The position numbers and the translations under genes are program-made. Source: Octopus vulgaris (lineage: Eukaryota). From it: a stretch of 64,000 nucleotides of DNA. Under the pieces are notes generated by a model. That model was not told the DNA's origin and made no database searches. It saw nothing but the letters and a program-made list of their open reading frames with translations. The DNA is taken from positions 125,426,001-125,490,000 of the forward strand of contig OX597816.1 of NCBI GenBank assembly GCA_951406725.2, read 5' to 3'. Positions 3,729-64,000 of this stretch are shown here, piece after piece (position 1 is the stretch's first letter; every line of letters begins with the position of its first letter).

Positions 3729-3761
<33 letters not shown>

Positions 3762-3885
3762 TTTTTTTTTGTTTTTCTTCTTTCAAATTTTCTTCCATTT
3801 CTTGCCGAGTGTCTTCCCGACTCCTAGGGCAAAGAAACTCATAGTGTATATTGGTAGGCCATTAAACCAAACTCAGTAGTTCGTT

Positions 3886-4601
3886 AATTTTTTTTTTTTT
3901 TTTTTTAAAGTTAAATTAAAATACATGAGCAGCAACAGTTCTCACATCGACAATGCTCTTCTCAATACGTGTGATGTACCAGTTAAGACAATCTTTTGCA
4001 CTTCTTGCAGGGATGGTAAGCCAGGGATCATTCTCATATAATTTTCGGTTCCCTTCTTGATCATTCCTAGTGCTCCTACGATCACTGGTATTGTAACCGC
4101 CTTGAGATGCCACATTTTCTCAATTTCAATGAGTAGGTCTTTATATTTTCTGAGCTTGTCAAACTCTTTCGCTGAGATATTATGATCACAGGGGATGCTC
4201 ATGTCGATCAATAAGCAAACTTTATTGTTTTGGTCTTTCACAACAATATCTGGTTTATTGGCCTTGATGGTTCGGTCTGTATGTACTGGAAAGTCCCACA
4301 GAATGGTTACATTTTCTCCTTCAGTTACAGCCTCAGGGTGGTGATTATACCACTTGTCGGCAGTTTTGATATTGTAATGCCGACTTATTAGCCAGTGGAG
4401 ATATTGGCCAGCTCTGTCATGTCTTAATTTATACTCCACTGGTGCTAAGACTTTACATCCAGAGATTAGGTGGTCCACTGTTTCAATCATGTCGTTGCAG
4501 AATCGGCATTTTGGGTCTGCTCCATTTTTCATCACATTGGCCTGGTAGTTCCGGGTTAATAGGCTTTGGTCTTGAGCAGCCAGGATGAAACCTTCGCTCT
4601 C

Positions 4602-24323: not shown

Positions 24324-26520
24324 CATGGTTGATTGCAGACCAGTTAGCATTGTGAAGATTCATGAGATCGAAGGGTGTGAGGGACAGAGATCACTCAGAT
24401 GATCAATTGGCTGCCTGAATCTTAGGCGACAGAGAACCATATCGTGGTCGGAAAGAGACTTTTCCATCGTAATACCGTGGATATTGTTTGTGTGGTTGCT
24501 TAGCACTAAGCCCAGAATGTTCTTATTGAATCTGTTGGCACGAGCACTAGATGGGACAGGAAATTCATCCATAAATTGAAATAGCGATTCCACTGCGGGT
24601 TTGTCTGAAGTGGAAATGCACGCGCCAGTTTTCAGGGTATGAGTAGCCCAGTTAACACAGGGGAAATTGAAGTCACCCATCATTAAAATATTATCAAGAT
24701 GACATTGTTGAACGAAAGACTTGATATTCGTGAGACAGTCTTTGAAGCACAACAGTGGTGCATGAGGTGGCGTGTAGAGCCCAATTATTGCTAAATCATT
24801 CGTTTTCTTGTAGACAGATACTGATTCACAATAGCCATTGAAAAGTGAGACATTTGTTCTGCAGTAAATAAGTCATGTAGGAAAATGATAACTCCTCCTT
24901 TTCTTCTACCGATGCGGTCGGCTCGGAATGTGGTGAAATTCCTTACTTTCACTTCAGCTTTCAAGTGGGAGTTGTCAAGTTGGGTTTCAGTAAGGATGAA
25001 GAAGGAAATGTGATGAGTGTGATCAATGAATTGGGTCTTTCATCATTTTGCATGGAAGCGGGTACAGATGACTAGAACATTCAGTAAGAATGTTGAGACT
25101 GGAGTAGTGGCCTAGTTAGACATTTTAGAGGCCTCGGTAGAGATTTATGGGTTAATGGTAGTGAGGAGGGTAGGTTTTGCATTGAGGTAGCGGCAGAGGT
25201 TGGTTCTGTGTGATAGCTAAGATACTCTTCTGCATCTCTTTAGCTAGGTTCCGCATGGATAAAAAAGAAAGATTAACCTGGTTAAAAACTTCGTACCTGG
25301 AGTTGTGTTTACATTCACAGTTATGTTGGATGCTTCTACTGCTTCGAATGGATGTTCTCCAGTTTCCTGAGCTGTTGCGGAAATTCGTGCCATTAGATTT
25401 GTTTTTGTTTTTACTTGTTTGTGTTCACGTTGGGAGTGTGCTTATTACCAAGATTGTGGGAAAGGTGCGCACCGATGCTGCTGCAACAGGGTGGATATTT
25501 GTGGAGTGGATTTTGGTGATGGCTAGGAGTATTGTTTTTCATGGTACGTCGAGGCCCAGGGAGATGGGTAACATTACAATCTTTCTATAAACACTCTCTC
25601 ACGCTGGGTGTAACGGCAGATTTTAGGGTTACGATTTCTTGATTTTGGTGGTGTTGCAATAATAGAAAGGAAATTGTGGGGATAGTTTCTATTGCTTGAG
25701 CGTCTTGTTCCTGGAAGATGAGTGAAATTACAATCGCGGTTTGTACATAGCCTTTCGCGTAGGGAGTGGTGGCATATTTTTGGATTGTGATTTGAACTTG
25801 TGATTGTTGTAGAGGGGAGTGGATTGTAAATAGTTTGAGATTTAAAATTGTTTGACTTTAATGGTGATAGGGTAGTGGGGACTGGAGAAGGGGAATAGAG
25901 CAGTGGTTGGTTTTGTACACTGGCCGAGATAGTAGTAGTAGCAATGGTACTTGAGTTTATTAGTGAAGCTGTGATAGAAGGATACGGAGGAAGTAAGAGT
26001 GGTTGGGATTAGTCACTGGCAGAAGTAGAATGGAATGTTTGACTTTGGCCACTAAGAGTAGTAGCAGTAGTAGGAGGAGAAGATGAAGAAGGGAAAGAAG
26101 TGGAGGGGTAAGTAGCAGTAGATGATGGAAATGGTGATGACGACGATGATGGTAGTGAGTCTATTGCGGTAAGGTGGTCATGGTCCCATTGTTGTTCTTT
26201 TAGCTGCTGATGTGATTGTTGTAGTTGTTGTTGTTCATCATGGGCTGTGATGGATAAAAAATTTCGAGCTAGTTTATCCACGTGGTTACTCACGGTGCGA
26301 TACGAAGTAGAGTTATGCTTCAGTTTATTCTGTATTTGTCTCTCGTTTCGGTTATTAAAGAGATGAACAACCCTTTTAGCAACGAGATTGAAGTTTGAGG
26401 CATGTATGTTATCAGTTTGAAAGAAAATGAACCATGAGTTAATGAGAGTATCCACTTCAATATCCGACCGGTTGCGACTTTTAAAGACGTGTTGTGTTGG
26501 CATTTTTTTTTTTGTTACTG
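23560..26520 (-). mobile_element. CR1/L2-group LINE 5' half: ORF1 with CCCH fingers, APE endonuclease, linker
   Basis: APE motifs ILTETQL, MGDFNFP and SDHDMV. Linker is homologous to 6820-7250. ORF1 region has a Ser/Thr-rich tract and PKICHHSLRERLCTNRDCNFTHLPG. Confidence 0.82.
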
Positions 26521-31753: not shown

Positions 31754-32424
31754 ATACAAACAATTTCTAGACTGTCGCTGTGGAGGATACTATGTTCTGC
31801 ATACTGGGAAAATTTAGGGTTAAAGTATGCAACGAAAAGCGTAAGAATATAATAAAAACAGCATAAAATATTCAAGAGAGAGTAAACTTGAAGAAGGCTA
31901 GAAGAAATATACTGATGCAGTATAGGTCCATATAAATGGAAACAAAAACTACAGAAATAAACACTTTCCAAGCATGTGCTGCGTTTTATAGATTAGTGTA
32001 TAAATCAATGCTGTCATGTGTGTATCCGTTGCACGAAAATAATATATAAATGAATTAGACGTGATCAGAGGAGCGAAATATTTCAGTATACCACAAGCAA
32101 AGGAAACAGACTTTACTTCTGAAAAGGTGTTGCAGATATCAAAACTAGTATGTGTTATTGAAGTAGGAGGATATATAGTTTATGTAACTAGGAAAATACT
32201 ATATCACGTAAGCACAATAAGCGCGTGTTTCGATAAAAAGAGAACATCGCTTTAAAACAGAATTAACTGCAAATGAGGTCAGCTTATGAAAACGAAAGGA
32301 AAATACATATAATATATAATTTATAAAAGATCGTTATTCTTATATCCAGAAATTAACAAATAATTTTAAAGAGATACTTTTTAGAAACAGTAGAAGTTTC
32401 TTTTTTTATCTCTTTGTCAGGAGG
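31754..32424 (+). repeat. 671-bp direct duplication, copy 1
   Basis: Identical by eye to 39895-40565; the ORF track shows identical peptides. Confidence 0.93.
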
Positions 32425-34999
32425 GAAGCCTGTGCCAGTGACCATAATAGAGCCCCCAAGATTGATAGGTTGGAGGAAGGAATTTTTTCCTCAAGCTAAA
32501 ATGCTGGCATAAATGATTACAAAGAGAGTGGAGCTCACACGGTGCTAGAAGGTGATGTAAACCCAGAAAACAGGTTACGTTTATTACTCAAGTGAGCCAT
32601 GGATGGATTTGATCTTAGAACTCAAAGAGCTGAAACAAATACCACTTGTTACGACGTTCTTACAGTCATACCAAACCACCGCCTTAAAAATGCTACTATT
32701 TTGTTGACCAGGGATGGATAAAGTGTAAGGTCTATCTAGGTGATATTTTGATTCAGAGTTCAGAGATTCGAAACAAATATCATAATACTTCCAGTCCGAC
32801 GGTCAATAATTTAATATACGTATTTAGATTGAAATATGCTGTAATAAATTTAGCATTTTCCCCACTACGTTCTGTCTTTAAAGGCTGTCCTAATGGAAAT
32901 ATAATTTTCTTCACTCTAGAGACACTTCCTGATCTCTTTTGTGCACTTTGAGGCCCTAGACACAACAAGACGTTCAAGACTTAACTTATGTTTGCTGTAC
33001 AGTGTTACCTGTAGAAATCCGTTAGTATATAAAATGGTTGTTGTTAAGTTAGATGAGAATAGCATTGTAGAACGAAACTTTTATTCACGAAAAGATTAAC
33101 TTAAAAAACACTTTGATAATGTCGAATATTCCTTACAACTTTCAAAATGTTGCAGTTCATACATACATACGCGCATACACACACGTGCATATAAACGCAC
33201 GCACACACACACACACACACATATAAAACAACTAAACCAGTTGTTAAGATGATATTTAATTGGATAGAGTAGAGGAAATCCAGGACAGTTTTATAATTAT
33301 ATGAAAAGGCAATTTGAAGAGCTGTTTCCTTATCTGCAACCCAATCATCAAGAGTAAGAAAGAAAGAACGCCATAGCTTTCTCTAAATATTTAAGAAGTA
33401 CGGTATATTGGAATGTGGATAAATTTGGCAACCTATGTCAACAGTTTAACACACTGCACCATACAAAAACGGAACAAACCAATTTCTACTCTGCAGCACT
33501 CATGAATATCACATTGTATTTCAACAACGTACCATGATAAAGAAAAACGAGAGTATATTCAAATGATGTCTCAAAAATAACTTCCATCTAGTGAACAATA
33601 AAAGTGAAATGAAATCCGACAGATCTACCGAACGGAAATGACATAGAGCTCGGTCACTAGACAAATTGGAATTTCAGAACGCAGGCTATGTCACTACGGT
33701 AAAAGTAAAAAATACACTGGTTACTATTTTTAATAGGCCTCCATGCTAGCTAAAGACGGCTAACTGACTCGAAACTTAGTAATAATGATAATTGAAAAGT
33801 AACCTGTTTTAGCTGAATAAAAATGTATCATTTTGCATCTGATATTGCAAATATACAGATACATGCACGCATATATGCGTGAGAGTGTGTATTTCTATAT
33901 GTGCGGGTGCGTTCGTGTGTGTGCGTGTGGTTCTGTGTGTGTATGGTTGTGTGAGTGAGAGAGAGAGAGAGGGAGGTAATACAGGGTACATTTCAAAGCG
34001 TCCAGAAGCAAAATTATTTGATGAAAGAGTTCTATGAATTTTCATTTATAAACAATTGTTGCTACAACATGAGTTCAAAAACAAAAAAATAAGTCAATAA
34101 GAATGAATTTTTGATAAAATCTTACAAAAAAATTAGACAATGGTACTCATTAGCAGTTAACTGGTCACCAAATCAAATTCCGCATATTATGAACACATTG
34201 CTATCTTCCATGTTCCTGGTAAACGTGATGAAGACAGGACAGCAACAAGTATGAGAAAATATACAAATAATTAGGTACTGCAAATATTTAAGTCTGTCGA
34301 CTTTCAGAAGTCAACAAACGAAACACTCGATGGTTGACCAGCAATATTAAACAGTGAATGTCTTTCAACTAGGATGAATAAAACAACTAAGCAGAAACGA
34401 GTGTGAATAATGTAATATTAAGAGGAAATAAGGTAATAGCTCATTGGACTTAAGTCCTTGAACAAAGATAAATATGTAAGAGAAACGTAGTTTCCAGATC
34501 CGTGATCAAAACAAAATATATTTGCACACAGTAGAATCGGGGAAAGACAGAAATTTATCGTCGGAAAAGTTAGAATGAAGCAGGGAAGGGGAAGGCTGGA
34601 AGAAAGTCAAGGTAAAGAGAAAGAGAAGGGAAGCGAAACAGAAATAGAGAGAAGAGAAACACTAAAGGCGATAGGAATGGTGCAGGCAATTGCTGAGAAA
34701 TAAACTTGTTAATGTGAGCAAAATGGCAGCGAGACATTAAGAGCAAAGTGAAGAAAGATTAAGCACAGAGAACTGGTAAAAATGCGAACAATATAAGTAG
34801 TAATGTTAAACACCTCGTCCTTTTCTGACTATTTTCATTATATGGCATATTTTAAATTTATGTAACGTTAGATGTATCTCATGGCCCCAGGTAATTTATA
34901 TCTATTTACAATTAATTCCTGAGTACTTAGCGTGATTTATATTTCGTTTTGATAAGCTGATTTCTGCAATTTCTAGTCCATATAAGCATATCCTTTATT

Positions 35000-39894: not shown

Positions 39895-40565
39895 ATACAA
39901 ACAATTTCTAGACTGTCGCTGTGGAGGATACTATGTTCTGCATACTGGGAAAATTTAGGGTTAAAGTATGCAACGAAAAGCGTAAGAATATAATAAAAAC
40001 AGCATAAAATATTCAAGAGAGAGTAAACTTGAAGAAGGCTAGAAGAAATATACTGATGCAGTATAGGTCCATATAAATGGAAACAAAAACTACAGAAATA
40101 AACACTTTCCAAGCATGTGCTGCGTTTTATAGATTAGTGTATAAATCAATGCTGTCATGTGTGTATCCGTTGCACGAAAATAATATATAAATGAATTAGA
40201 CGTGATCAGAGGAGCGAAATATTTCAGTATACCACAAGCAAAGGAAACAGACTTTACTTCTGAAAAGGTGTTGCAGATATCAAAACTAGTATGTGTTATT
40301 GAAGTAGGAGGATATATAGTTTATGTAACTAGGAAAATACTATATCACGTAAGCACAATAAGCGCGTGTTTCGATAAAAAGAGAACATCGCTTTAAAACA
40401 GAATTAACTGCAAATGAGGTCAGCTTATGAAAACGAAAGGAAAATACATATAATATATAATTTATAAAAGATCGTTATTCTTATATCCAGAAATTAACAA
40501 ATAATTTTAAAGAGATACTTTTTAGAAACAGTAGAAGTTTCTTTTTTTATCTCTTTGTCAGGAGG
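39895..40565 (+). repeat. 671-bp direct duplication, copy 2
   Basis: Matches 31754-32424. Confidence 0.93.
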
Positions 40566-40717
40566 TAATATAAAATATATACCATGGTAATATAAAATTT
40601 ATTTAATAAACAATCCGCTTAGTTCAATATGATAGGCTTCAAACGTAAACTACATCTCTCACGTTTCTATTCAAAACTGTCTAAGATCTAGTGACATGTA
40701 ACTTTTTCATTTGTCAG

Positions 40718-44200: not shown

Positions 44201-45764
44201 GCCCAGAAAAAAACCTTGGTCTACGAGTATTGACTTATCTATACAAGCGCTCAAATATTTTTAGAATAGTTGACTGATTGGACTACACAATGGTCTGTCT
44301 AAATAATTATATGTCATTGATATCTCCGATCAAGTCTGACACAACACCACTACTACAATTGACAATAATAACGAGAACGTTTAAAGCATCAAAGAGAAAA
44401 ACAGCTAAAACAGCTGAAATATCTAAGTTACTACTAATACTAGAAATATCTAAGTTACTAGTAATACTAATGTCTGACAAATTAATTAAAATTGATATCA
44501 TTATTTACTATTAGACATTAAAATTGAAGAATTAGAATAGAATCTCCCATACAATTACTTTCTAAATGAAATGTATAGTTATAAGACGAAAATTAGAAAG
44601 CGTGCTGAAGAGGAGTCCTGGATTATATTATGTTCTATCACAGATATCAGAAATAAGACAATAAGAATAAATACATGAGCAACCACAGTCATAAACGTCA
44701 GTTTCATTATAATATATTAGAAGTTAGATGAACTGAAGCCAAGATAATAAACGTAGAAATCTATATTTTACTCTCCGAAAGCATTATTCTACATACTTTG
44801 TAGATTGATTACAGGGAGCTATTACAAAATAATGACTCATTCGTTTAATAGGATAACTTGAAGAATAATGCGTAGTTATCCATATTAAAACAAATCAATA
44901 TAGTACACCCTAAAAACAACTTACACCAATGTGAAGATTTCGTTAAGAGAAGAAATAAAGTATAACGAAAATAAAAATTGAACTTCAAAAAGTATCAAAC
45001 CATTTGTCGAGAAAAGCATCTATATTCCCAGTATTCTGCTTCACTCAGAAAAGGAGTAATTCAACTTCTAAAACATTAAAGCTGAATAATCACTGAATGA
45101 AATTCAAAACTTGCTGAAAAGATAAAATTCTATCAAAGCACAAAGATCTTTATTGTTTCAATAACTGGTAAACTGGCTATTTTTAAAACTATATTATTAG
45201 TTTTATGAATTTACAGAGAATAGAAGTAGATCTAGCGAGGGAATGTCACATGATACGAAACAGATCTAATTCAATCATTGAATTGCTCCTGTATGCTTCC
45301 TCTGTGACTATTTCCTAATCTTGTAGCACAATTTAGACAACTGATATGCTGAATAATCAGCACCAATTAATATTACAGGACTTCAATGAACAAAAGTGAC
45401 ACCCAAGATGAAGCAACATTTCGCAGTATGACCATCTTTCACCGAAAGACGCGCCGAATCAAAACTGAACTGAGACGGATCAAGAAGCAACATAACTTGC
45501 ATAATAAACATTCATAACAAGTGAAATAATAAAGACCTAAGAATAGGAAAACAAACTGCACAACACAGAACAAATTACGGGTAACACAAAGACCTTTCAT
45601 GTACCTTAAAAATCATAGTACTGTACACAATACTGGACAACTTGTGCACGCTTGATGATGGCACAAAATTTTGAACAAAGCTCTTGATGAAGGAAAATTA
45701 TAATGATCATAATTTTTTCTACACAAGGAACAAGGCCAGTAACTTTTACATTCACTCCATGGTT

Positions 45765-45900
45765 CAGTGGGTGTTTATTTTATTAGCACCGAAAGGATAA
45801 AAAGCAGGGTCGATATCGGAGGCATTTGAATGTAAGGACGAACGAAATGCTGCTAGGCATTTTGTCCGGTGTGCTAACGATTCTCCCAGCTTGCCGCCCA
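45765..45900 (-). mobile_element. Degenerate SINE
   Basis: GGCGGCAAGCTGGGAGAATCGTTAGCACACCGGAC head and TTATCCTTTCGG body; same family as 9757 and 62790. Confidence 0.7.
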
Positions 45901-45903
45901 ATC

Positions 45904-45904
<1 letters not shown>

Positions 45905-45984
<80 letters not shown>

Positions 45985-46760
45985 GGAGAACACCGGGGAC
46001 GTTTAACATGTAAGAGCGGTAAAACGCTGCACCGAAATCTATCCCAAAACATCGGGAATAAAGGCAACAAATGGAGCCTGAAATAACTGACAAAGTGTTG
46101 GACCGAGTAAATAATACTCATTAAATTTTCAACAGCAGAAAGAACAACGATAACGGAAACACACAACACCCAGGTATACTCCAAACAAAGCTCTTCTGCT
46201 CCCTCCCTCTCTCCTCTACTCCGAATTGAAATGCATCCATAAATTCGCACCCAGATTCCACAAACACGGATTTATCTGCAACACACAGGGAAGAGGTAGC
46301 GGAACCTCAAAAACCAAAACAATCAAAACGCGAACACTGTAAATCATCATGCCCTATATCAACACATACCAAAACACATAGAAAACACAACCACAGCAGG
46401 TGCAGACACTGACAGCATCACTACCACCACCACCACCACCACCACCACCACCACTACCACCACCACCACCACCACTACCACCACCACCACCACCACCGCC
46501 AGCACCACTATCACCTCCCAGCACTGGAATCATCAACACTTCTACCATTATCACAACCAGCTCCACCAACACTACTACAACTGCAACAACCCACGAAAAG
46601 GAAACAGTCCCAATAGCAACAACCAACCACACAAACACAAAACTACGTGCTTTGTTGGAGAACCAACAAAGAATTGATGGTTCTCTTCGCAGGAAGGAAA
46701 GACATCGAAAGAATGGGTGAGATATTCGGTACCAGCACATTTCAAGTGCTAGACACATTA
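45905..46760 (+). repeat. (AAT)n tract followed by A/C-rich sequence with (CCA)n; possible decayed retroelement 5' region
   Basis: The microsatellites are direct. Retroelement origin rests only on composition and polarity relative to (AAT)n. Confidence 0.35.
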
Positions 46761-47149
46761 ATGATGATGAGAATGCCTCCAGAAATATACAAAAACATTA
46801 GGGAGAACTTCTCTCTCGATGTGGAAACCCCTAATGTAAAAGTCACGAGTTGGGTTTTAAGGGGGCTCCCAGAGGATCCTCAACAGGTTAGGGATGTTGA
46901 ACCACATGATATCCCGCGTCACCCGGACGTTACTAATGTTGTAGCCATATCTCCTTTTTCATTTTGCATCCACTGTCAATGCTAATCATACCTTTGAGAA
47001 TGGATCAGCTGTTGACAGCATGGATCAGCTGTTGAAATAAAGGACGGGGCAATTCATTCTTCAAATTCCAAAAATTCTACCGGTGATGTTCCTGGAATGA
47101 CAGTCTTCGAGACCCTGTTATTTCTATCGTCATATTTTCAAAATATTAA

Positions 47150-47470
47150 ATGTAGAAAGTCTTAAAGTACTTACTTCTTCATAACACTAGTATAGCAGCT
47201 TGTCAAACAATCTCACTAGTTGTATTTCTACTCCTATGACCGACCTTAGTTCTGCAATGCTACTCTTTGTGCGTTTCGTAAAGCACTGCTAGTCTAAACA
47301 ACACAGAATTGAATTTGCTAGTTCAGTCTTCTTACAGACTGTACAGTATATGCAACTTTTCATACCATGGCCAAGGAACATTTACCCTAATGTCAATAAA
47401 GCTGCTTAGATCTATGGGGAATAGGTGTACACTGCAGTAATAATTCAAACGGCATAATGTATGTCACGTG
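47150..47470 (-). mobile_element. Ancient CR1-like RT C-terminal relic
   Basis: LNYYCSV..SP and YEKLHILYSL resemble LEYC..WSP and YEERL..LYSL. Confidence 0.35.
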
Positions 47471-49299
47471 AAATCTCATGAATACTCCAAAGCAAATACA
47501 TATAATAATACAAATAATAATTATCAAATTTAATTTGTATGTGTCTAAAACATTTAAACTCTCCCAGGAATTCAGAAACGTTTATCATTGTATCAGGATA
47601 TTACTTATTAAAGGAGACATTCTTTCATTGCAACATGACCGTCATATTTCAACTAAATACTAGTGCACTGTAAAAGCCAACTCGAACATTAAAGAAAATT
47701 AATGCCAGCAAGCAAAATTGTTTTGTGATATCTGTTTGCATTACTAACGATTCACCTTCAGTATACATATTTTTAGTATGTATACATATGTTGAGTTTAT
47801 ATACATTCAAATATGTATGAGTGTATGTATACATGCATATAATCTCTTTGTTACTGACGTTTTCGATTTTATTTTGGAAAGCCGTAGGCTCTGTTATGAG
47901 GTAACATGGAAATGATATACAATCGAGTGCATCTCTACTTGTTTATATTCCTTCTTCAATATCATTTCCTTTTTAAATATTAAGATCTTGTCGATTTTGC
48001 CGATTTTGATTGTCCCTAATATCAGAAAATTGTGTAGTGCATGAATTCAAGAATTTAAATTCGATAATACTTTGATCTAAGAGGGCTAAATATATGCTTT
48101 CCTTCCAATAATAATGGATTTAAAGTTGCAGCTGTAATGTTGGTCCTTTATTAGCAAATTCACTAATGGGCCATAGATGTTTTCTTTCTCCTCTAATTTT
48201 ATTACCACGTTGTTTTAAAATGGGCGTGTGTTTTTATTTGGTTGCTTGTTTTATTTTCAGGTTCTAATATTATTTCGATCCATTATATTCAATGCGCTTC
48301 TTTTCATTGGTTGTTGTTGTTGTTGTTATTTCTTACTCCATTAATGTATTCCTGATCGATCTGATGGCCAAGCACGCATTATCGAAAGATGATATCTTGT
48401 AGACATGTGGTTAATGTTTACAGTTTGGTTTTTGAATATTCAGCTGGTTCTTGTTGTCTTTTGAGTATAAGGTAGAGTATTTTATTTCTTCAAGATGCCC
48501 TTAAGGATAAAATACTTTAAACCGTAATTACACACTTTATCCCTTCTATGCTCGGTGTTTTTTAAGTACCTATGCCCATCCTTCTCAGCAAACTGGCCTA
48601 GATGTTTTTATTTATTTATTTTTTTGTGTTATGTTATTCATTGGGATGTGACCAGAGGTAGCTTGCAAATCATTTTTCTTCATATGTTCACTCTTACTAA
48701 TAATGATTCGTGCTCGCAAGCTTGAGCGAGATATTTGCTGAAAAGTTTTCACTACTGGAAATGTGGCTTCAGTGTTACAACTGTTTATTGTATTTTTGTA
48801 ATATTATTGCAATATTATTGCTGATTTAATGCCGCAGTTCTCCACTTCCTTGTGGGAGAAACATAATTTGTCTAGCTTCCCAATAATCTCAACATGTCCG
48901 AAATTGAGCTATTTGTGTGTCTTTGCCCCTCAATCTCGCTACGTTCTTGTATAGACCAGTACAGAGAAATAAGTGCAGGCACTAAAATGCGTTGTGAGGT
49001 GTATGTTTGTTGAATTTTTGTTGAACGTATTTTTTCATATATTTTTCATTTTTTCAGATAGCTTGTTCTTTTAGCGGAGTATCTTTTACAAATAATGTGC
49101 TATATTGAAGACACGACAGATGAATTGGAGTAAATTTATATTTAAATTTTCAGATCATGTTTTTGATTACGTATTTAAGACTTTAACGTTACAACTCTTG
49201 TCTTCAAATTGCCTTTCTCATTTTTCTGCCAGATAAAATGATTCGTTTTTACGATTTATCTTAATATTTTTTTTATCAACAATTCCTTTGTAACAAGTC

Positions 49300-50406
49300 A
49301 ATGAATAATATAACCACCTTCATTTTTCCCGATCTCTTGCCAGTGCCTTGAGAGAATCATCGAATCTTGACACGAGGAATTTATGAAGCCACGTTTTCAG
49401 CTTAAATGCTGATAATCTAAAGGCTCTGTATCAGAAGAATGCGGTGTCTGCGGTAGAACTTCCTACCCGAGCTCTTGAATAGCATTTTGTTTTTGTCAAA
49501 TTAGCGACGTGGAGGCGAACCATGCAGAAGAAATATGCCAAATCATCAGTTGGGTCGTTTCATATGGATTGATTCGTTGAACCGGTAGAGTTTCTAAACG
49601 TAAAAGCTCTGCATTGATCGGCTGGTTGATTTCAAACACTTTGTTGCAAATTAGCTCTTCCTAATCCCACCAAACGCAGACCATTGTCTTACGTGGAGGT
49701 TGCTCTAGCCTGGTTGCTTGCTTGTGGGAACCCAAGCATTCTTACGTCTGCCTCATAATGATGCAAATTCAGAATATTTTTACACCGATGACGATCGTTG
49801 TGGTAAAGGAATGTCTTTTTGTGTTCACTAGTAGCCTGGGGTCGAGCAAATAATGCAGCAGCGATAGTGGAGCGTTCAGAGCGTATAGCATATACGCACC
49901 AATCTTTTGGACCTTATCCGTCGAAAGAATATTAAATTCGACGCCATCCTGAGGGATTCTGCTGAGCTAATTCTCTAGGGAATTGGCGCGGATACTCGTC
50001 GATGGTTTGGTTCAAACTATCCTCATTAAACTGAACAGGTCGATAGGAACGCGAAGAGTCTGTGAGATACAATTTCCTCCTTGACATGACAAGCATTTCT
50101 GTGCAGTTCATTTAGTAATAGTGTGGTTTTAGTTTTTGTAAGCGGCACAAATATCTCGATCGATTTGATAGCTTTAGTGTTAGTTTGTTAGCAAATGAAG
50201 CAAGCGTCGAAAATGCTTAGTCTGTTTTTTTTTTCTACTCAGCAATTTATCATTATATGTCTGAAAAAAAGTAAAATCTATGTAATGTTCAAAAGCGATA
50301 AACAAAGGACGTGGAGGAAGGAGAGAACTGCAAAAAATAAACACGATAAAAATATTCTTCGTGTTAATTCTAACAATATTTAAGAATTTAAATGACAACC
50401 CAATAT
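49300..50406 (-). mobile_element. Decayed mariner
   Basis: RKTMVCVWWD near 49670-49695 and a TA-TTGGGGTTGTC TIR at ~50394-50406. Confidence 0.7.
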
Positions 50407-50785
50407 ACATTTTTGATGTTTTGTGAGCGTATGATCTCTGCTACTTTGCACAACTTCAAGAATTTGTAAAATGTCTTTTCGTACAAATAAAATATTAATT
50501 TATGAGTAACACACCACCTCGTTTAAGGATGTGCGCTCGATTGTATAACTTCAGTATTGTTTCACTTCCTTGCACCTGAGTTAAAAACGTGATTACTGAT
50601 ACATACGATTAAACAAATCACTGACTCTTGTATTACTTTCATACCCCTGCTTACTTTTGAGCTAATGTCTTGCATCTAGACGAGAATGTAATTTTTATCT
50701 TGTTTTAATGAGCTATATTGCAAGGTAATGCATTTTATCTGCCATAATATTTCATCATGATTATAATCATTATCATTATCATCAT

Positions 50786-50890
50786 CAGCATCATCAGCGT
50801 CACCAACATCAGCATCACCAACATCAGCATCACCAACATCAGCATCACCAACATCAGCATCACCAACATCAGCATCACCAACATCATCAT
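50786..50890. repeat. 15-bp minisatellite (CATCACCAACATCAG)n grading into (ATT)n
   Basis: Seen directly; source of the ITNIS ORF repeat. Confidence 0.9.
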
Positions 50891-50899
50891 CACCACCAC

Positions 50900-50933
<34 letters not shown>

Positions 50934-51233
50934 GAGTAGTCATATTTTTATCACGTTTACACCTCACTACCAAGCGGAGTTCTGTGTGCTTTGGGTATGT
51001 TCGTTGTGGTCCTCTATATTTTCACTGTATTGAAATAGTATTACGTAGGATGTGTGCAGTGCCTAGTAGTGATATTTTCTCTATGTTATATATAATTGTA
51101 AGTCCTTGTGTTTTTGTTATGCATTTCTCTGAATGTTTTTATTATACCTATTGAGGTTACTATGATAGGAATTGTTTCTGTTTTTAGACTCCACATTCGA
51201 GTTACTTCTACTTCCAGATCTTTGTATTTTGCT
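50934..51233 (-). mobile_element. R4/Dong-like 3' fragment related to 55445-59372, flanked by (ATT)n
   Basis: KYKDLEVEVTRMWSLKTETIPII and LLGTAHILR; the 3' UTR aligns to 55445-55545. Confidence 0.85.
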
Positions 51234-51247
51234 GTTGTTATTGTTAC

Positions 51248-51948
<701 letters not shown>

Positions 51949-52502
51949 GAGTGAGAGAGCAGTGCATGCCATCAAAGTGACACTGGGGTAAAATATACGA
52001 AGCCCAATATACCCATCATGACTACCCGTCTGATAAAGGTTCACCAGGCACATGCATCACAACCATATGTGCGCGACATGGTGATCTCATATCAAGATAA
52101 ACAGCACATGACCTTGCAGGTGGGGCCCAGTTAGAATTTTCTTCAGGTTGAGTAGCCCATCCCGCTCAAAAGGTCCCTGAATAAGGGTTGTTTAAGGATG
52201 TTGAAAGAACCACCCATGTTTCCAGAGGTGAACTATTCAAACCCCAAAGAATACCTCTCAACACATGGCTATGATGCTCCCCCACTACTTCTGCTCGTGA
52301 TCAGAGATGCACATATTGTCAGCCACTAAGGGACATGCTCAACTGGTTAAGGTCAAACAACTGACAAGCAAATCTGTGGTATTGAGCAGAATATTTGCTG
52401 TAGCCCATCTTTTATACCAAGACAAAACAATGTACATGATAACACTTCCAATCAGTTAAGATCAGAAGCCATGAGAGCCACTGCCTGGTACTGCATCAGG
52501 GC

Positions 52503-52504
<2 letters not shown>
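51949..52504 (-). mobile_element. ~556-nt non-coding (AAT)n-inserted unit, full-length copy
   Basis: Near-identical to 59950-60505, flanked by (ATT)n on both sides, no long ORF, no clear A/B boxes. Confidence 0.85.
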
Positions 52505-52560
<56 letters not shown>

Positions 52561-52563
<3 letters not shown>

Positions 52564-54490
52564 TTTAATCTGCATCTTTGTTACAGTCACTTACCGAGAC
52601 ACACCCAGTGTCCTGGGACGAGTGAAGGATAAGATATGTTACAGTATGATTGAAAGCTTGGAGAGGAGAAGCAGTGAAATATAACACAGACATTTAAATG
52701 GATAGGAGTTTTCAAAAGATGTGGGCAGTACTTGTTAGTACAATCTTTTGGATTTCTCTAAGATATGGCTTTCCTGGAATATTATCTAGATGTTTCTGAC
52801 ATCCCTTTTTATCATACATAGGGCACCTACAATTACAGGGACAGTCCTCGCTTTAAGATGCCACATCGTTTGTATTTCAGTTTCCAGGTCCTTATATTTA
52901 GTTAATTTATCAAATTCCTTTACAGGTATGTTTTTATCAGTGGGAACACTTACATCTATTAGTTTACAAATATTTTCTTCCCTGTCTTTAATAATAATGT
53001 CTGGTCGATTAGCCTGGATCGTTCTGTCAGTCTTGACTGAAAATTCCAGAGGGTAGTGACATTTTTACCTTCAACGACTGGCTCAGGATGATGTTCTTAC
53101 CAGTAAGCAGAAGTGCTGATTTTCTAGTGTTTACATATTTTCCAATGTATATACCCTATCATGGCGATTCTTGCATTCGTTTGGTGTCAGCACAGAACAT
53201 CCCGAGACGCGATGGTCTATTGTTTCGTCAAATGTGTCGCAGAATCTGCATTTAGGGTCACAAACGTTTCGAAGAACGTTAGCCTTGCATTTTTTTGTTT
53301 GTGAGCAAACTTTGATCTTGTTCCGCCAATATGAAACTTTCAGTCTCTGCTTTCAGTCCTGAACTTCTCAGCCATTGATGGGTTGTTGCTTGATCCATCA
53401 GCATTTCGACTTCGAAGTACATACTGTCCATTCAGAAGCTTCTGGCTCCATCGTTCCTCAATTTCCTCTTGGCCATTCTACCTTCTAAGAATTTGAGATG
53501 ACAGGCGAGGTCTTATATATCTCAAGGCCCTTGAGAATCCAATTATGTGGGACACTATTAAACGCTTTTCTGTTGTCTATCCATGACATACTCTAGATAT
53601 TTTGGTTCTAGCAATTCCCAACAATCATTTTACTTATGAGTAATTCATCTTTGCACTCATAGGAATTCCTTTTAACGACTTTTTGAACTTGTGGAAGGAT
53701 AGATCTCTGTTTAAGGAAAGCATATATTCTGTCAGTTAATACAGATGTGAAGATTTTTTAGGTGGTGATGACATATTATTATCGGTAGTTCTTTGGATTT
53801 TCTTAGTCATCAGCTTTTGGTAGAAGGCATGTTGTTCCCTCGGTCAGCCAGGCAGGTATAGGTATTTACTCTGGGTTCTGGATGACATCAGTCAGAGATG
53901 CAGCGAAATTTTGGTGCACTTCTGTCAGACAATTTAGCGAGAAGTTAGGAATTTGGTTCCAGTCCTGAGGTTTTCCATTTGTGAAACTTCCTAAGAACAC
54001 AGCTCTTCTATTCCTATTGCTCCCATTTCTGCTCTTCAACTTCATCCAGTCTCACTTTCTCACGCACTATGCAGTCATCTTTAGCATTTTATTCTTTTAT
54101 TTTATTTTTTATTTTTGCTCCATATCCTCTTCCAGAACTCTCCCATTTTTTCCGTTTTAGTTGGCTCCTTTACGTCTCTATGACTTTTGCCAATTTCCCT
54201 AAAAAAATTCTTTGCATCCATCTTGAATATCTTGTTTCGTCGATAAAATTTGATTATTTTGTCATACCTTCTAAGCCGTTGGGCTTTCAGTTGTATCTGT
54301 TGTTTCAATTGTTCCTTGGTTGCAGAGAGGTTTATAAAATCTTTCATTTTATATTTTTGTTTGATTTTTCTGGCTCGTTTCGTCATAACATTATTTACTC
54401 CTCTAGCAAGTTCATCGAGAACTGATACTTCCGCCCGCAGAGATTCGATGTCTTTTTGTATTGCTACTTTCTACTTAGGAGGTCTACCAT
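52561..54490 (-). mobile_element. Decayed, internally deleted RLE retrotransposon, second family
   Basis: KQQIQLKAQRLRRY..FKMDAKNFFREI, WLTEGTT..PKNYR, MDNRKAFNSVPHNWI, CRFCDTFDETIDH and RPDIII..IDVSVP motifs. The central RT is missing. Confidence 0.85.
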
Positions 54491-54687
54491 CATCATCATC
54501 GTCGTCATCGTCGTCGTCGTCGTCATCATCATCGTCATCATCGTCATCATCATCATCATCATCATCATCGTCGTCGACGTCGTCATGGTCATCACCACCA
54601 CCACCATCACCAACATCATCACCACCAGCACCTCACCACCACTACCACTATCATCACCATCATCATCATTATTATTATTATTATTAT

Positions 54688-55220
54688 ACTGTCATTGCAC
54701 AACATCTAACGCTGGAGATGTACTTTGGTGTTAGCTGTTCACTACCAGTGATCTAGGGTAACACCACTAATTTTTCGAGCACCATCTGGAGTTTTCGAGC
54801 GGTTCCAAGCTGTGTTGTTTTCTGAAAGTGCTCCATGTTTATTGCAGTCGCTATTTGTTTCATGTACTTCTCAAGATCTTTACTTACTGTTCCCAGGGCT
54901 CCGGCAATTATTGGTACTACTACCAACTTTTTCATTGACCACAACTGCCAAACCTCCCAAGCAAACCTGTCACATCTATCGACTTTTCTTTTTTCTTTAT
55001 CGCATATCTTGTTGTCAGCTGGTGCATGCTATATCTATGATCGAGCATCGTTTGCTTTCTTTCTCAATTAACACTATACCTGGTTTCCTATTCTCCATCT
55101 CATGGTCCCATTGGATCATAAAATACCATAGGATCTTTGCATTATTATTTTCGATGTTACCTTCGAGTTTATGTTCGTACCACTTTTTTGCTGAGTCAAG
55201 TCCATGCATGTTGCAAGTAT
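54688..55220 (-). mobile_element. RLE endonuclease 3' fragment, third family, flanked by (ATT)n
   Basis: KWYEHK..KILWYF..RKPGIV..IIDIAC and VVPIIAGALGTVSK..LGTARKL. Confidence 0.85.
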
Positions 55221-55229
55221 TATCATTAC

Positions 55230-55296
<67 letters not shown>

Positions 55297-55342
55297 GTTA
55301 TTATTATTATTGTTATTATTATTATTATTCTTATTATTATTA

Positions 55343-59440
<4,098 letters not shown>

Positions 59441-59506
59441 GTTGTTGTTATTATTATTATCATCATCATTATTATAATTCTGGTTGTTGTTGTTGTTATT
59501 ATTGTT

Positions 59507-59911
59507 GAATGAGAGAGCGGTGCATACCATAAACGTGACACTGGAGTACAAATATATTAAGCACAGTATACCCATCATAACTACCCGTCTCATAAGGGTA
59601 CTCCAGACATATGCATTTCAACCATATATGCGTGACATGTTGATATCATATCAACGTAAACAGCGTATAAACTTGCATACCGGTCCCAGTTAGAATTGTT
59701 TTCAGGTTGAGTAGCTTCATCGCACTTAAAAGTTCCCTGAATATGATTTATTTAACACTGATGTTTCCAAGTGTAAATTATTCCAAAGAATACTTCTCAA
59801 AATATAGCTATGATCTGCATTTGCTCGTGGTCACAAGTTCACATATCGTCCACCGCAAAGAGACATGCTCAACTATTTAAGCTCAAGCGAGAAGTAAATC
59901 TTTGGTATTGA
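59507..59911 (-). mobile_element. Diverged, 5'-truncated copy of the 556-nt unit
   Basis: Aligns to 51949 onward with substitutions and deletions; same junction to the microsatellite. Confidence 0.8.
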
Positions 59912-59949
59912 CCAAGGTATCTATTTTTAATATTATTATTATTATTATT

Positions 59950-60505
59950 GAGTGAGAGAGTAGTTCATGCCATCAAAGTGACACTGGGGTAAAATATACG
60001 AAGCCCAATATACCCATCATGACTACCCGTCTGATAAAGGTTCACCAGGCACATGCATCACAACCATATGTGCGCGACATGGTGATCTCATATCAAGATA
60101 AACAGCACATGACCTTGCAGGTGGGGCCCAGTTAGAATTTTCTTCAGGTTGAGTAGCCCATCCCGCTCAAAAGGTCCCTGAATAAGGGTTGTTTAAGGAT
60201 GTTGAAAGAACCACCCATGTTTCCAGAGGTGAACTATTCAAACCCCAAAGAATACCTCTCAACACATGGCTATGATGCTCCCCCACTACTTCTGCTCGTG
60301 ATCAGAGATGCACATATTGTCAGCCACTAAGGGACATGCTCAACTGGTTAAGGTCAAACAACTGACAAGCAAATCTGTGGTATTGAGCAGAATATTTGCT
60401 GTAGCCCATCTTTTATACCAAGACAAAACAATGTACATGATAACACTTCCAATCAGTTAAGATCAGAAGCCATGAGAGCCACTGCCTGGTACTGCATCAG
60501 GGCAT
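59950..60505 (-). mobile_element. 556-nt unit, full-length copy
   Basis: Only two differences from 51949-52504 seen by eye, both near 59961-59965. Confidence 0.88.
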
Positions 60506-60591
<86 letters not shown>

Positions 60592-61094
60592 GAGTGAGAG
60601 AGTAGTGCATGCCATCAAGTGATTCTGGCGTAAAATATACGATGCCCAGTATACCCATCATGACTACTTGTCTGATAAGGGTACACTAGGCACATGCATC
60701 ACAACCATATGTACGCGACATGGTGATCTCATATCAAGATAAACAGCATATGACTTGCAGGTAGGGCCCAGTTAGAATTTCCTTCTGGTCGAGTAACCCA
60801 TCCCGCTAAAAGGTCCCTGAATAAGGGTTGTTTAAGGATGTTGAACGAAACATTCATATTTCCAGATGTGAATTATTCAAACCCCAAAAGTACTCGCAAC
60901 ATATAGCTATAATGCTCCTCCACTACTTCTGCTCTTGATCAGAGATGCACATATCGTCAGCCACTAAGGGACATGTTCATCTGGTTAAGGTCAAGCAACG
61001 GACAAGCAAGTCTGTGGTATTGAGCAGATTATTTGCTGTAGCCCATCTTTTATACCAAGACAAAACAATGTACATGATAAACTTCCAATCAGTT
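60592..61094 (-). mobile_element. 556-nt unit, variant copy truncated ~45 nt at the 5' end
   Basis: Homologous to the unit and near-identical to 61486-61990. Confidence 0.8.
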
Positions 61095-61424
61095 TAAATC
61101 AATATATCCACTTTCTGTCGTCTTCTAATATTTTTTATAGCATACATACATAATACATAAATACAGACAACATACATATAATGTATATGATAAATATACA
61201 GCCACTGTATTGTATATAAAAGCCGAAAGTTAGTAAAATTTAACTTCATAGTACGTACAAGACTATCTAAATATAAATTACAAAATTATTATTGAATATG
61301 AATAGCATATTAGTTAATAGAATTATGTTTGAAAACGGACAAGAATTATTATTACATTAAACTTTAGACTAATCTTTATACCAAGACAAACAATGTACAT
61401 GATAACACTTTATGCATCAGGGCA

Positions 61425-61485
<61 letters not shown>

Positions 61486-61990
61486 GAGTGAGAGAGTAGT
61501 GCATGCCATCAAGTGATTCTGGCGTAAAATATACGATGCCCAGTATACCCATCATGACTACTTGTCTGATAAGGGTACACTAGGCACATGCATCACAACC
61601 ATATGTACGCGACATGGTGATCTCATATCAAGATAAACAGCATATGACTTGCAGGTAGGGCCCAGTTAGAATTTCCTTCTGGTCGAGTAACCCATCCCGC
61701 TAAAAGGTCCCTGAATAAGGGTTGTTTAAGGATGTTGAACGAAACATTCATATTTCCAGATGTGAATTATTCAAACCCCCAAAAGTACTCGCAACATATA
61801 GCTATAATGCTCCTCCACTACTTCTGCTCTTGATCAGAGATGCACATATCGTCAGCCACTAAGGGACATGTTCATCTGGTTAAGGTCAAGCAACGGACAA
61901 GCAAGTCTGTGGTATTGAGCAGATTATTTGCTGTAGCCCATCTTTTATACCAAGACAAAACAATGTACATGATAATACTTCCAATCAGTT
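61486..61990 (-). mobile_element. 556-nt unit, variant copy truncated ~45 nt at the 5' end
   Basis: Starts at the (ATT)n|GAGTGAGAGAG junction and ends at CCAATCAGTT into unique sequence. Confidence 0.85.
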
Positions 61991-62470
61991 GTACAATAGA
62001 TTTGCCCATATCATATCACACTTTTCTCGTCTGTCTTCCTCAATATTTGTTTGCACACACACACACATATATACATGCATACATACATACATACATAAAT
62101 ACATACATACATACATATAATGTATATGTATATATGTATATACATATATATTATATCATACTGTATTGTATATAAAAGCCGAAAGTTAGTAAAATTTAAC
62201 TTCATAGTATCCAATAACGTACAAGACTATCTAAATAACTAAATTATCGTCAAAGATTATTATTGAAATATGAATAGAATAAATATTAGTAGAAACCTAA
62301 TAGAATTAGGTGTTTGAAAACGGACAAGTTAATTATAGCCGAATTACATTAAACTTTAGACTAATTCTCTAAAATCGTAAAATGTACAGAACTCTAAGAT
62401 AATACGTGTCCGCTCAATTTCATGGTACACACGCACGTGTGTGTGTGTTGTTACACTAATATTGAATAGT

Positions 62471-62512
<42 letters not shown>

Positions 62513-62789
62513 CATATGTACGTGTATATGTATGTATGCATCATGTTTGCCTACGTGTAAAATAATTGCGTAAATGATTATATTTCACTTTGCACTGAAT
62601 CTATCAGACACTATTGCGATTCACAGTTGGAACTAAATGCCTCATGTGATGTCGCCTTATGTCCTACAAATATGCTTAATACCAACCAATTACATTTCTG
62701 TTTCGTATACATTCGTCATTTTGTACATCTAAGAATTCGATATGCAGAAAATGAAGTAAACTTTAGCTTTTCAATAAGTATTCTCTCGT

Positions 62790-62970
62790 TAAGGTGGAGA
62801 GCAAGCAGAATCATTGCCACGTTTTCCGTTCTGAGTTCAAATTCCACGGAGGTCGATTTTACCTTTCATCATTTCGCGGTTAATATAATAAGTACCAGTT
62901 GTTCACTGAGGCTATATAATCGATTTACACTTGCTCTGAATTTGCTGATCTAGAACAAAAATTTGAAATC
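62790..62970 (+). mobile_element. Degenerate SINE
   Basis: AAGGTGGAGAGC..GCAGAATC..GTTCTGAGTTCAAATTCC..TTTGAAATC; same family as 9757. Confidence 0.7.
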
Positions 62971-64000
62971 AGTATATATTCTCTCATTGTATTCCCGTGC
63001 TTTTATCTCCTGCAAAACACCTTGAGGAGCTCTCTGCAGCATGTCACCTTTTCCCTTTTTTCTTTTCTTTCTCTTTCATTCTCTTGTTTTACTTTCTTCA
63101 ATATATTCTCTCCTATGATCCTGAATTCATTACGATCGCCTTTTTTTTTTAGCAAATAATCGTCTTCACATCTTTACATTAGTCTCAAGAATCCCTTTTT
63201 TAAATTTCCAATATAATTCGTTCTCAAAGAGAACGTTACTTTTCCACTGTCCGTTCTGTTTATGAATCTCTGTTTGCAGACATTAAGAGAAAGCTGGATT
63301 AACAGTGCCTGTTAACCACAAACAACTTAATGCAATATTCAATAGCAAGCTGTTTTATGATAGTGCTGTATTGTATCGACTTCTTCTTACAAACTACGGA
63401 TCATTAAAAGGAAACCGAAATCCTTCTCTAAATAGATTGTTACAAAAATGCAGTGCTTTATTAATATTTTCAAATGCGGTTGCAAAGGTTTTATAAAGAG
63501 ATGCATAAATTGGCACTATAATAAATAAGCGAAGACTTTCATTCCATTTTATTGTTTCTGTTCATGATAATGTATAATACTTTCTCTTCAAAACTCTTGC
63601 GTCCTTCTCACAATAGATAATTTTCAAAATAATTTGCTGTTTATTTCTATTGGTAGATTTTTTAATGCATCACATTTTTGTTCTGTAATACCATTTCAAT
63701 GCATAAATGTACTGCTCGAGTGTGATTTTCACCAATAACATATCACCACAAACTATTGATTAATTTGCTGTAAAAGTTTTCAGGGAGGGGATAGTCAGTT
63801 GAAACAATAGCAGTATATGCCATTATATGCCATATACTTATTTTATTGATTACAGAAGGATGAAACGTAAAGTTAATTCCGATGGGACTATGGCTCAAAG
63901 CATAGAGGGACGAAACTAAATAATGTAAGGCAGTCTGTCTGGTGTTCTAACCATTCTATCATTTGCCTTGTTTCGAGAAGAGAAAATATTCAATACGGTA

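Follow-up and report, generated by a model that had tools for sequence, protein, structure and literature searches.

A high-copy non-coding retroposon in AAT arrays of Octopus vulgaris, probably copied by a Dong-type LINE protein

The locus

The window, the whole stretch of 64,000 nucleotides of Octopus vulgaris DNA that was analysed, contains a 556-nt non-coding element on the minus strand, embedded in (AAT)n arrays between broken Dong-type LINEs. Element positions are counted from its 5' end on the minus strand. The features are:

51446..51898, minus strand: family C Dong-type copy, internally deleted (N-terminal coding piece fused to the 3' UTR), adjoining c1 downstream
51899..51948, minus strand: (AAT)n array adjoining the 3' end of c1, which is its target, its tail or both, (TTA)16.7
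51949..52504, minus strand: c1, non-coding retroposon of full length (556 nt); compared to the majority of 216 copies it has five differences
52234..52402, minus strand: positions 103-271, by sequence match also present inside a TA-flanked MITE family
52403..52502, minus strand: predicted 5' domain, positions 3-102, with a GCCC/GGGC closing stem, a GCTTCTGATC/GATTGGAAGT hairpin and TATAAAA at position 89
52505..52561, minus strand: (AAT)n array bordering the 5' end of c1, boundary AATAA/ATGCCC, (TTA)19
52562..54490, minus strand: family D Dong-type LINE, broken 3' part, adjoining c1 upstream across the AAT array; upstream boundary approximate
55445..59372, minus strand: family A Dong-type LINE, broken and slightly 5'-truncated, with RT (RVT_1, E 6.8e-32), CCHC and PD-(D/E)xK region; candidate helper lineage
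~59507-59914, minus strand: c5, old decayed copy, positions 117-556, 74% identity
59950..60505, minus strand: c2, full-length copy, 99.6% identity to c1
60592..61101, minus strand: c3, 5'-truncated copy beginning at about position 41, 91% identity
~61375-61425, minus strand: remnant of a sixth copy, positions 1-13 fused to 58-94, at the duplication border
61486..61990, minus strand: c4, local duplicate of c3 beginning at about position 48, 91% identity

TTA arrays abut c1 on both sides, and the boundaries 51949-52504 given in an earlier note on this DNA are exact. The note had also described five copies, maybe four of them independent, with a fixed end at AAT and three truncations at the opposite end. 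This was borne out. The minus-strand end of all five copies is CTCTCTCA(C/T)TC followed by AA(T/C), and three of the five lack the other end. The two 91% copies, c3 and c4, lie within one local duplication (60531-61373 versus 61425-62365), so the window holds four independent insertions at most. The reported absence of a long ORF and a tRNA head was likewise confirmed: the longest stop-free frame has 59 codons, and ARAGORN detected 0 tRNAs. The element has no AATAAA/ATTAAA.

The near-identity of c1 and c2 had been taken as a sign of recent activity. Both carry 188A+464A, a combination found in just one other of 216 copies. Being nearly private, the pair may stem from local duplication or conversion, and recency is instead carried by the genome-wide data. 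A separate subfamily was considered for c5, which has no close relatives and is simply old.

A dispersed family in AAT arrays

The genome search covered 2.8 Gb in 227 contigs. The 21-nt 3' terminus of the element has 13,462 exact matches, and the reversed-pattern control has 0. AATAAT directly follows 11,485 (85%) of these termini; the (AAT)n bias claimed from the window thus holds genome-wide. Among the first 100 listed termini, 17 lack AATAAT, and 14 of these 17 run into AAT-like variants. The 24-nt 5' start has 5,478 matches. Copies are dispersed across many contigs. The median divergence from the majority sequence is 3.8% in 119 copies picked by position, with 5/119 at 1% or less and 34/119 at 2% or less; picking by exact match favours young copies. 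The tree of copies is star-like. The element may already sit unclassified in repeat libraries.

Contigs from sequencing runs of four organisms also cover the element. In one run (X18, organism D), and in that organism only, the summed contig depth over window 52351-52466, the 5' part of the element, is several-fold above the rest, possibly due to a derivative family with the element head. Three metagenome matches of 20-21 nt lie in unrelated GC-rich DNA and were dismissed as chance.

Polarity and junctions

The copies have a fixed 3' end and a variable 5' truncation, the pattern of non-LTR elements mobilised by target-primed reverse transcription (TPRT). At the first 30 places anchored at the 5' start, 29 copies reach the 3' end; 27 are full length, two are internally deleted duplicates of each other, and the remaining one is a chimera. 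At the first 70 places anchored at the 3' terminus (contig C1), only 41 copies start at positions 1-15, versus 14 at 16-150, nine at 151-400 and six later. AAT-like DNA lies immediately upstream of 54 of these 70 copies, which identifies the array as target and not only as tail; at three, the upstream DNA has, by eye, the opposite orientation. The AAT phase is continued at only 597 5' junctions, so the 5' end of the element is a defined position. The flanks on both sides are the same microsatellite, masking any target-site duplication.

Tandem duplications of the 5' end occur at seven loci (L004, L011, L019, L031, L177, L179 and L207) and a 5' inversion at one (L038). Dong-A copies have similar 5' duplications. 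The duplications, the inversion and the one-sided truncation fit TPRT of a minus-strand RNA. The sequence AATAA directly precedes 40/65 full-length element copies and 28/45 full-length Dong copies, compared to a background of 168/494. The AA preference is absent in 5'-truncated element copies (11/51). Insertion in TAA/AAT repeats with the polarity of Dong is the property expected of a Dong-dependent element. The proposal of a site-specific non-autonomous retroelement is upheld by (AAT)n insertion and the polarity of RLE LINEs.

An abundant SINE-like family (clusters of 24 and 16; window 45835-45904) is flanked by the same arrays. By eye it seems to read the other way (ATT), a hint that AAT arrays serve a second machinery as well.

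Neighbouring Dong-type LINEs

The best solved relatives of the family A protein are R2 proteins (E 2e-26). The R2 endonuclease (RLE) region aligns weakly to the family A LINE (E 0.12), with the CCHC and PD motifs in register. The N-terminal region is presumably Myb-like. The neighbour LINEs have a single ORF with RT, CCHC and a C-terminal RLE, and a TAA target, the features that define Dong/R4. No named Dong/R4 reference is among the 120 homologues listed for the RT of the neighbour LINE. The assignment to the Dong/R4 type is made by target and domain layout, not by a tree with reference sequences. TAA repeats are described as the Dong target in PMC1635306 and PMC3812793. The former places Dong under RLE and the latter under APE; RLE fits the octopus sequence. 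A different LINE class is represented at 24360-24872 on the minus strand by a piece of an APE-type endonuclease (PF14529, E 4.5e-10).

At least nine types of LINE 3' ends terminate at (AAT)n in the direction of the element. Wherever a protein-coding element was seen to terminate at AAT with this polarity, it was of the RT/RLE type. Chimeras also connect the LINEs and the element. Between AAT arrays, locus L032 has Dong-A pieces followed by element positions 241-556, and locus L096 has positions 1-285 followed by two Dong pieces, with the remaining element absent within 7 kb. At L066, L208 and L209, a full-length Dong-A stands head-to-head with positions 332-556, each closing in its own AAT array. 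Template jumps would explain the chimeras, and equally would deletions between neighbours in one array. The shared target, the polarity and the chimeras point to the RLE protein of Dong-type LINEs as the likely helper.

Further Dong-type sequences were observed. A Dong-A-like 5' end lies at window 45985-46420 (plus strand) and a family B 3' fragment with an open C-terminal frame at 3761-4601 (minus strand). An in-frame (GAA)24 run at 56377-56448 in the Dong-A ORF encodes poly-glutamate. Dong-type copies with internal deletions or made of several pieces are common (51446-51898, minus strand; L247, L032, L096, L208), and some mix families between two AAT arrays, which suggests frequent template jumping or deletion in arrays. 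Many Dong-C copies (L285-L313) share extra sequence upstream of the 5' end, beyond GAT/AAT runs; the 5' UTR may be longer and contain internal triplets, or a single large locus may have been amplified.

Search for a source sequence

The Dong sampling comprised about nine 3' ends, two 5' ends (families A and C) and ten family H upstream regions without a defined 5' end. Smith-Waterman alignment with shuffles yielded no significant local similarity of the element to seven LINE 3' ends; the lowest p value, 0.015, is one of 21 tests and falls in the 5' part of the element. BLAST gave no match of the element in the 3' ends of family H or the 5' ends of families A and C. For the last 182 nt, four runs at 80% likeness were made, and the best-supported loose ends were all the element itself or AAT, with 1,056 weaker ones beyond. 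A coding remnant was not found in the element.

Rfam gave 0 matches at E<=10 for the element; window positions 45000-64000 yielded only microsatellite noise. It also gave no backing to resemblances to 5S, U1, SRP, 7SK and RNase P, and these were abandoned. Hand-written consensus patterns detected no exact A or B box. TTTT runs are located at positions 78, 334 and 512. The TATAAAA at position 89 cannot produce the 5' end of the element. The searches identified no source RNA and no promoter or ribozyme that accounts for this 5' end.

Several identities were considered and rejected. A hammerhead-like 5' junction (CUGAUGC ... AAAA) is missing the conserved core, and its cleavage site would fall near position 98 instead of the 5' end. 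An HDV ribozyme has no Rfam match; loose descriptor matches are internal only, on both strands, and none lies at the 5' end. A retrozyme or Penelope-dependent element disagrees with the lack of a complete hammerhead core and with copies that are monomers separated by AAT. An LTR, solo LTR or MITE disagrees with the ends ATGCCC...CACTC, with neither TG...CA nor terminal inverted repeats, and with the polar truncation.

Predicted minus-strand fold

The minus strand of c1 folds better than its shuffles (z -2.85), whereas the plus strand does not (z +0.16). For the majority sequence, z is -3.1 and for its antisense +0.8. The predicted helices are mainly long-range; only the first and the last of eleven 120-nt windows reach a z of -1.8 or lower. 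The earlier note had described serial helices specific to the minus strand. The strand difference stood, but three of its six helices break at common variants: among 216 copies, two pairs of CTGGTGAA/TTTATCAG are kept in only 7% and 30%, one pair of TGTTGAGAGG/TCTTTCAACA in 46% and one pair of CAGTG/CACTG in 61%.

Variants were tested on 199 of the 216 copies after removal of near-duplicates. In the predicted minus-strand fold, pair-keeping transitions outnumber pair-breaking ones (171 versus 127 sites, p 0.004; antisense fold p 0.95), with variants that are not independent of each other. Variants at 10% or more comprise nine pair-keeping and one pair-breaking. Two-sided changes number 47, compared to 34.8 +/- 5.9 in the control (p 0.03). 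The proposed covariation check was thus answered in part: the pair-keeping bias is present, but no pair covaries strongly and linked variants are not located at paired sites. RNAalifold on 119 full-length copies collapsed to 27 pairs, none shared. Rare variants are neutral and have no pair-keeping bias, as would be the case with selection confined to source copies. A signature of A-to-I editing was considered and rejected, given no A-to-G excess among rare variants. An older subfamily as a source of covariation was discarded as well, given the star-like tree and the lack of close relatives of the 74% copy. The minus-strand fold is plausible rather than established.

A MITE carrying part of the element

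A TA-flanked MITE family with at least 256 copies carries element positions 103-271 (169 nt) at 77-91% identity. The MITE has about 500 bp with terminal inverted repeats (CACTGTGTAAC...GTTACACAGTG) and sub-terminal inverted repeats (L211-L240, e.g., L217 ~1130-1610). The stretch is present in 30/30 MITE loci examined, two with deletions. The MITE-borne copies are on average older than the element (median 9%). One strict pattern for an empty form of the MITE had 0 matches. Since predicted helices extend across the border of the fragment, our reading is that the MITE captured the stretch from an element copy of greater age.

Proposed mechanism and alternative origins

The element is probably a high-copy, non-coding 556-nt retroposon of (AAT)n arrays that is copied by TPRT with the RLE protein of a co-resident Dong-type LINE. 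Mobilisation may start with a minus-strand RNA that has a defined 5' end near A1, as the end visible in genomic copies suggests. Long helices are the likely fold of this RNA, with some selection on them in source copies, in line with a modest statistical signal. For binding, the LINE protein would depend on the shape or the AAU tail of the RNA and not on a borrowed 3' UTR, as judged from the missing homology to LINE 3' ends. The next steps would be a nick in the ATT strand, made by the RLE, and priming by the RT at CTC/AAT, the junction observed in the copies. Incomplete synthesis and template jumps could give rise to the observed 5' truncations, duplications, inversions and LINE chimeras.

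For the origin, a tentative possibility, with the odds somewhat against it, is a structured RNA that arose independently, has no known small-RNA head or helper piece, is loaded by the Dong protein via shape or AAU tail and has reached more than 13,000 copies.

The element could instead be a SIDE or bipartite element, i.e., the joined 5' and 3' ends of an unsampled or extinct Dong-type family, with the same mechanism and an ordinary origin. We consider this unlikely, with some room left for it by the diversity of Dong in this species: the supplement of PMC13282606 lists 51 Dong-R4 families, besides 1,279 unclassified SINE families, in the O. vulgaris repeat library, compared to the 3' ends (about nine) and 5' ends (two) sampled here. 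Internally deleted Dong copies exist (e.g., 51446-51898), and the R2 SIDEs described in PMC3414825 are a precedent. The genomic loci speak against such a composition. With the exception of the L096 chimera, no LINE continues from the element head in 30 5'-anchored loci, and no LINE runs into the element tail in 87 3'-anchored loci. The loose ends best supported over the last 182 nt, element or AAT, and the missing coding remnant argue in the same direction.

Another enzyme, from an APE-type LINE or a Penelope-like element, might prime by annealing of the AAU tail, with Dong as a mere co-tenant of the arrays. The element has no sequence in common with the Dong-type elements tested, further repeats cluster at AAT arrays, and microsatellite-targeting APE elements are described in PMC3812793. 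This alternative is improbable: every coding element observed to end at AAT in this orientation is of the RT/RLE type, and the abundant SINE-like family in the arrays seems, by eye, to read the opposite way. A Penelope-type repeat of the 3' part and a hammerhead core are missing in the element.

The view of the element as a local tandem repeat, or as part of something longer (a 5' UTR, LTR or pseudo-LTR), is very hard to maintain: c1 and c5 each lie directly upstream of a Dong N-terminal piece in the window and TATAAAA is present at position 89, but the element is found upstream across AAT in only 3/30 Dong-A and 3/30 Dong-C 5' loci (the window counted in each set), both families have their own 5' ends, as a check demanded earlier now establishes for these two, the downstream flanks of 100 sampled copies are mutually unrelated, the copies are spread over many contigs, and 5' truncation is no feature of LTRs.

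Comparison with known systems

The closest known systems to the Dong-dependent retroposon proposed here are EhSINE1 of Entamoeba histolytica and the R2 SIDEs. As described in PMC2996970 and PMC1635306, EhSINE1 has about 550 nt and ~400 copies, no small-RNA precursor and no clear pol III boxes, and its helper EhLINE1 has a restriction-like endonuclease. The octopus element is similar in its length of ~550 nt, its non-coding nature, the lack of a detected RNA precursor and of pol III boxes, and the likely RLE helper. It differs in three respects. EhSINE1 has a 3' end of ~70 bp in common with EhLINE1, and no common tail was found in the LINEs sampled here. According to the same sources, EhSINE1 has visible target-site duplications and is not site-specific, whereas the octopus element resides in (AAT)n. 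Its copies number >13,000 versus about 400.

R2 SIDEs, as portrayed in PMC3414825, consist of a 5' HDV-like ribozyme and the helper 3' UTR and are rare residents of rDNA. The octopus element resembles these and the R2/R1 hybrid SIDEs of Drosophila in being non-autonomous and site-specific, with variable TPRT-type 5' junctions and putative template jumps; in contrast, no HDV-like ribozyme was detected in it, and no end derived from the LINE families sampled. Target and polarity are those of Dong (Bombyx), DongAg, DongBg, Rex6 and octopus Dong-R4, as far as described in PMC1635306, PMC3812793, PMC9115989 and PMC13282606. These LINEs are autonomous with about 4 kb, whereas the octopus element is non-autonomous with 556 nt.

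SINEs are a further point of reference. Octopus tRNA-derived SINEs were reportedly the subject of a 1994 octopus paper. Like the canonical SINEs characterised in PMC3531059, the element is <700 bp, non-coding, dispersed and present in high copy number, with a simple-repeat 3' flank and subfamily variants. Unlike them, it has no tRNA, 5S, 7SL or snRNA head and no A or B box, and it contains three internal T4 runs. Under the definition of SINEBase, size, non-coding nature and dispersal agree, and an RNA-derived head and a pol III promoter are missing.

The earlier note's claim of an undescribed system was overstated, since RLE-dependent non-autonomous elements are known as R2 SIDEs and EhSINEs. 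The list of bipartite non-autonomous LINEs in Kojima 2018 (PMC5786205) names RTE, Ingi and R2 only. The literature searched, with repeat databases and subscription papers outside its scope, returned no account of the octopus element or of a Dong-dependent non-autonomous family.

Significance

Recognition of the own 3' UTR is attributed to RLE elements such as R2, and pieces of the helper are found in their known dependants; PMC3414825 calls R1 and R2 stringent for their own 3' UTR. A successful dependant with no helper piece, if real, would be a natural test of the RNA needs of an RLE protein. These needs bear on the use of RLE proteins for writing RNA into repeated sites. Should the independent origin be true, an RLE-type enzyme, usually called stringent, would be taking foreign RNA on a large scale, and the 5' end of the element would be expected to contain a promoter or self-processing motif that has gone unrecognised. 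If the element instead turns out to derive from an unsampled Dong family as a SIDE, it would still be Dong-dependent and of a kind not found in print, yet less surprising. In either case, one abundant repeat of the octopus genome has been named and the filling of AAT arrays by nested elements is illustrated.

Two further repeats were observed. A unit of tRNA-like head, internal (AAT)n and hammerhead-like tail recurs at four loci (L046, L048, L065 and L095), and its AAT hosts other insertions. Elsewhere in the window, two 674-bp copies (31754-32427 and 39895-40568) lie 8 kb apart with 99.85% identity.
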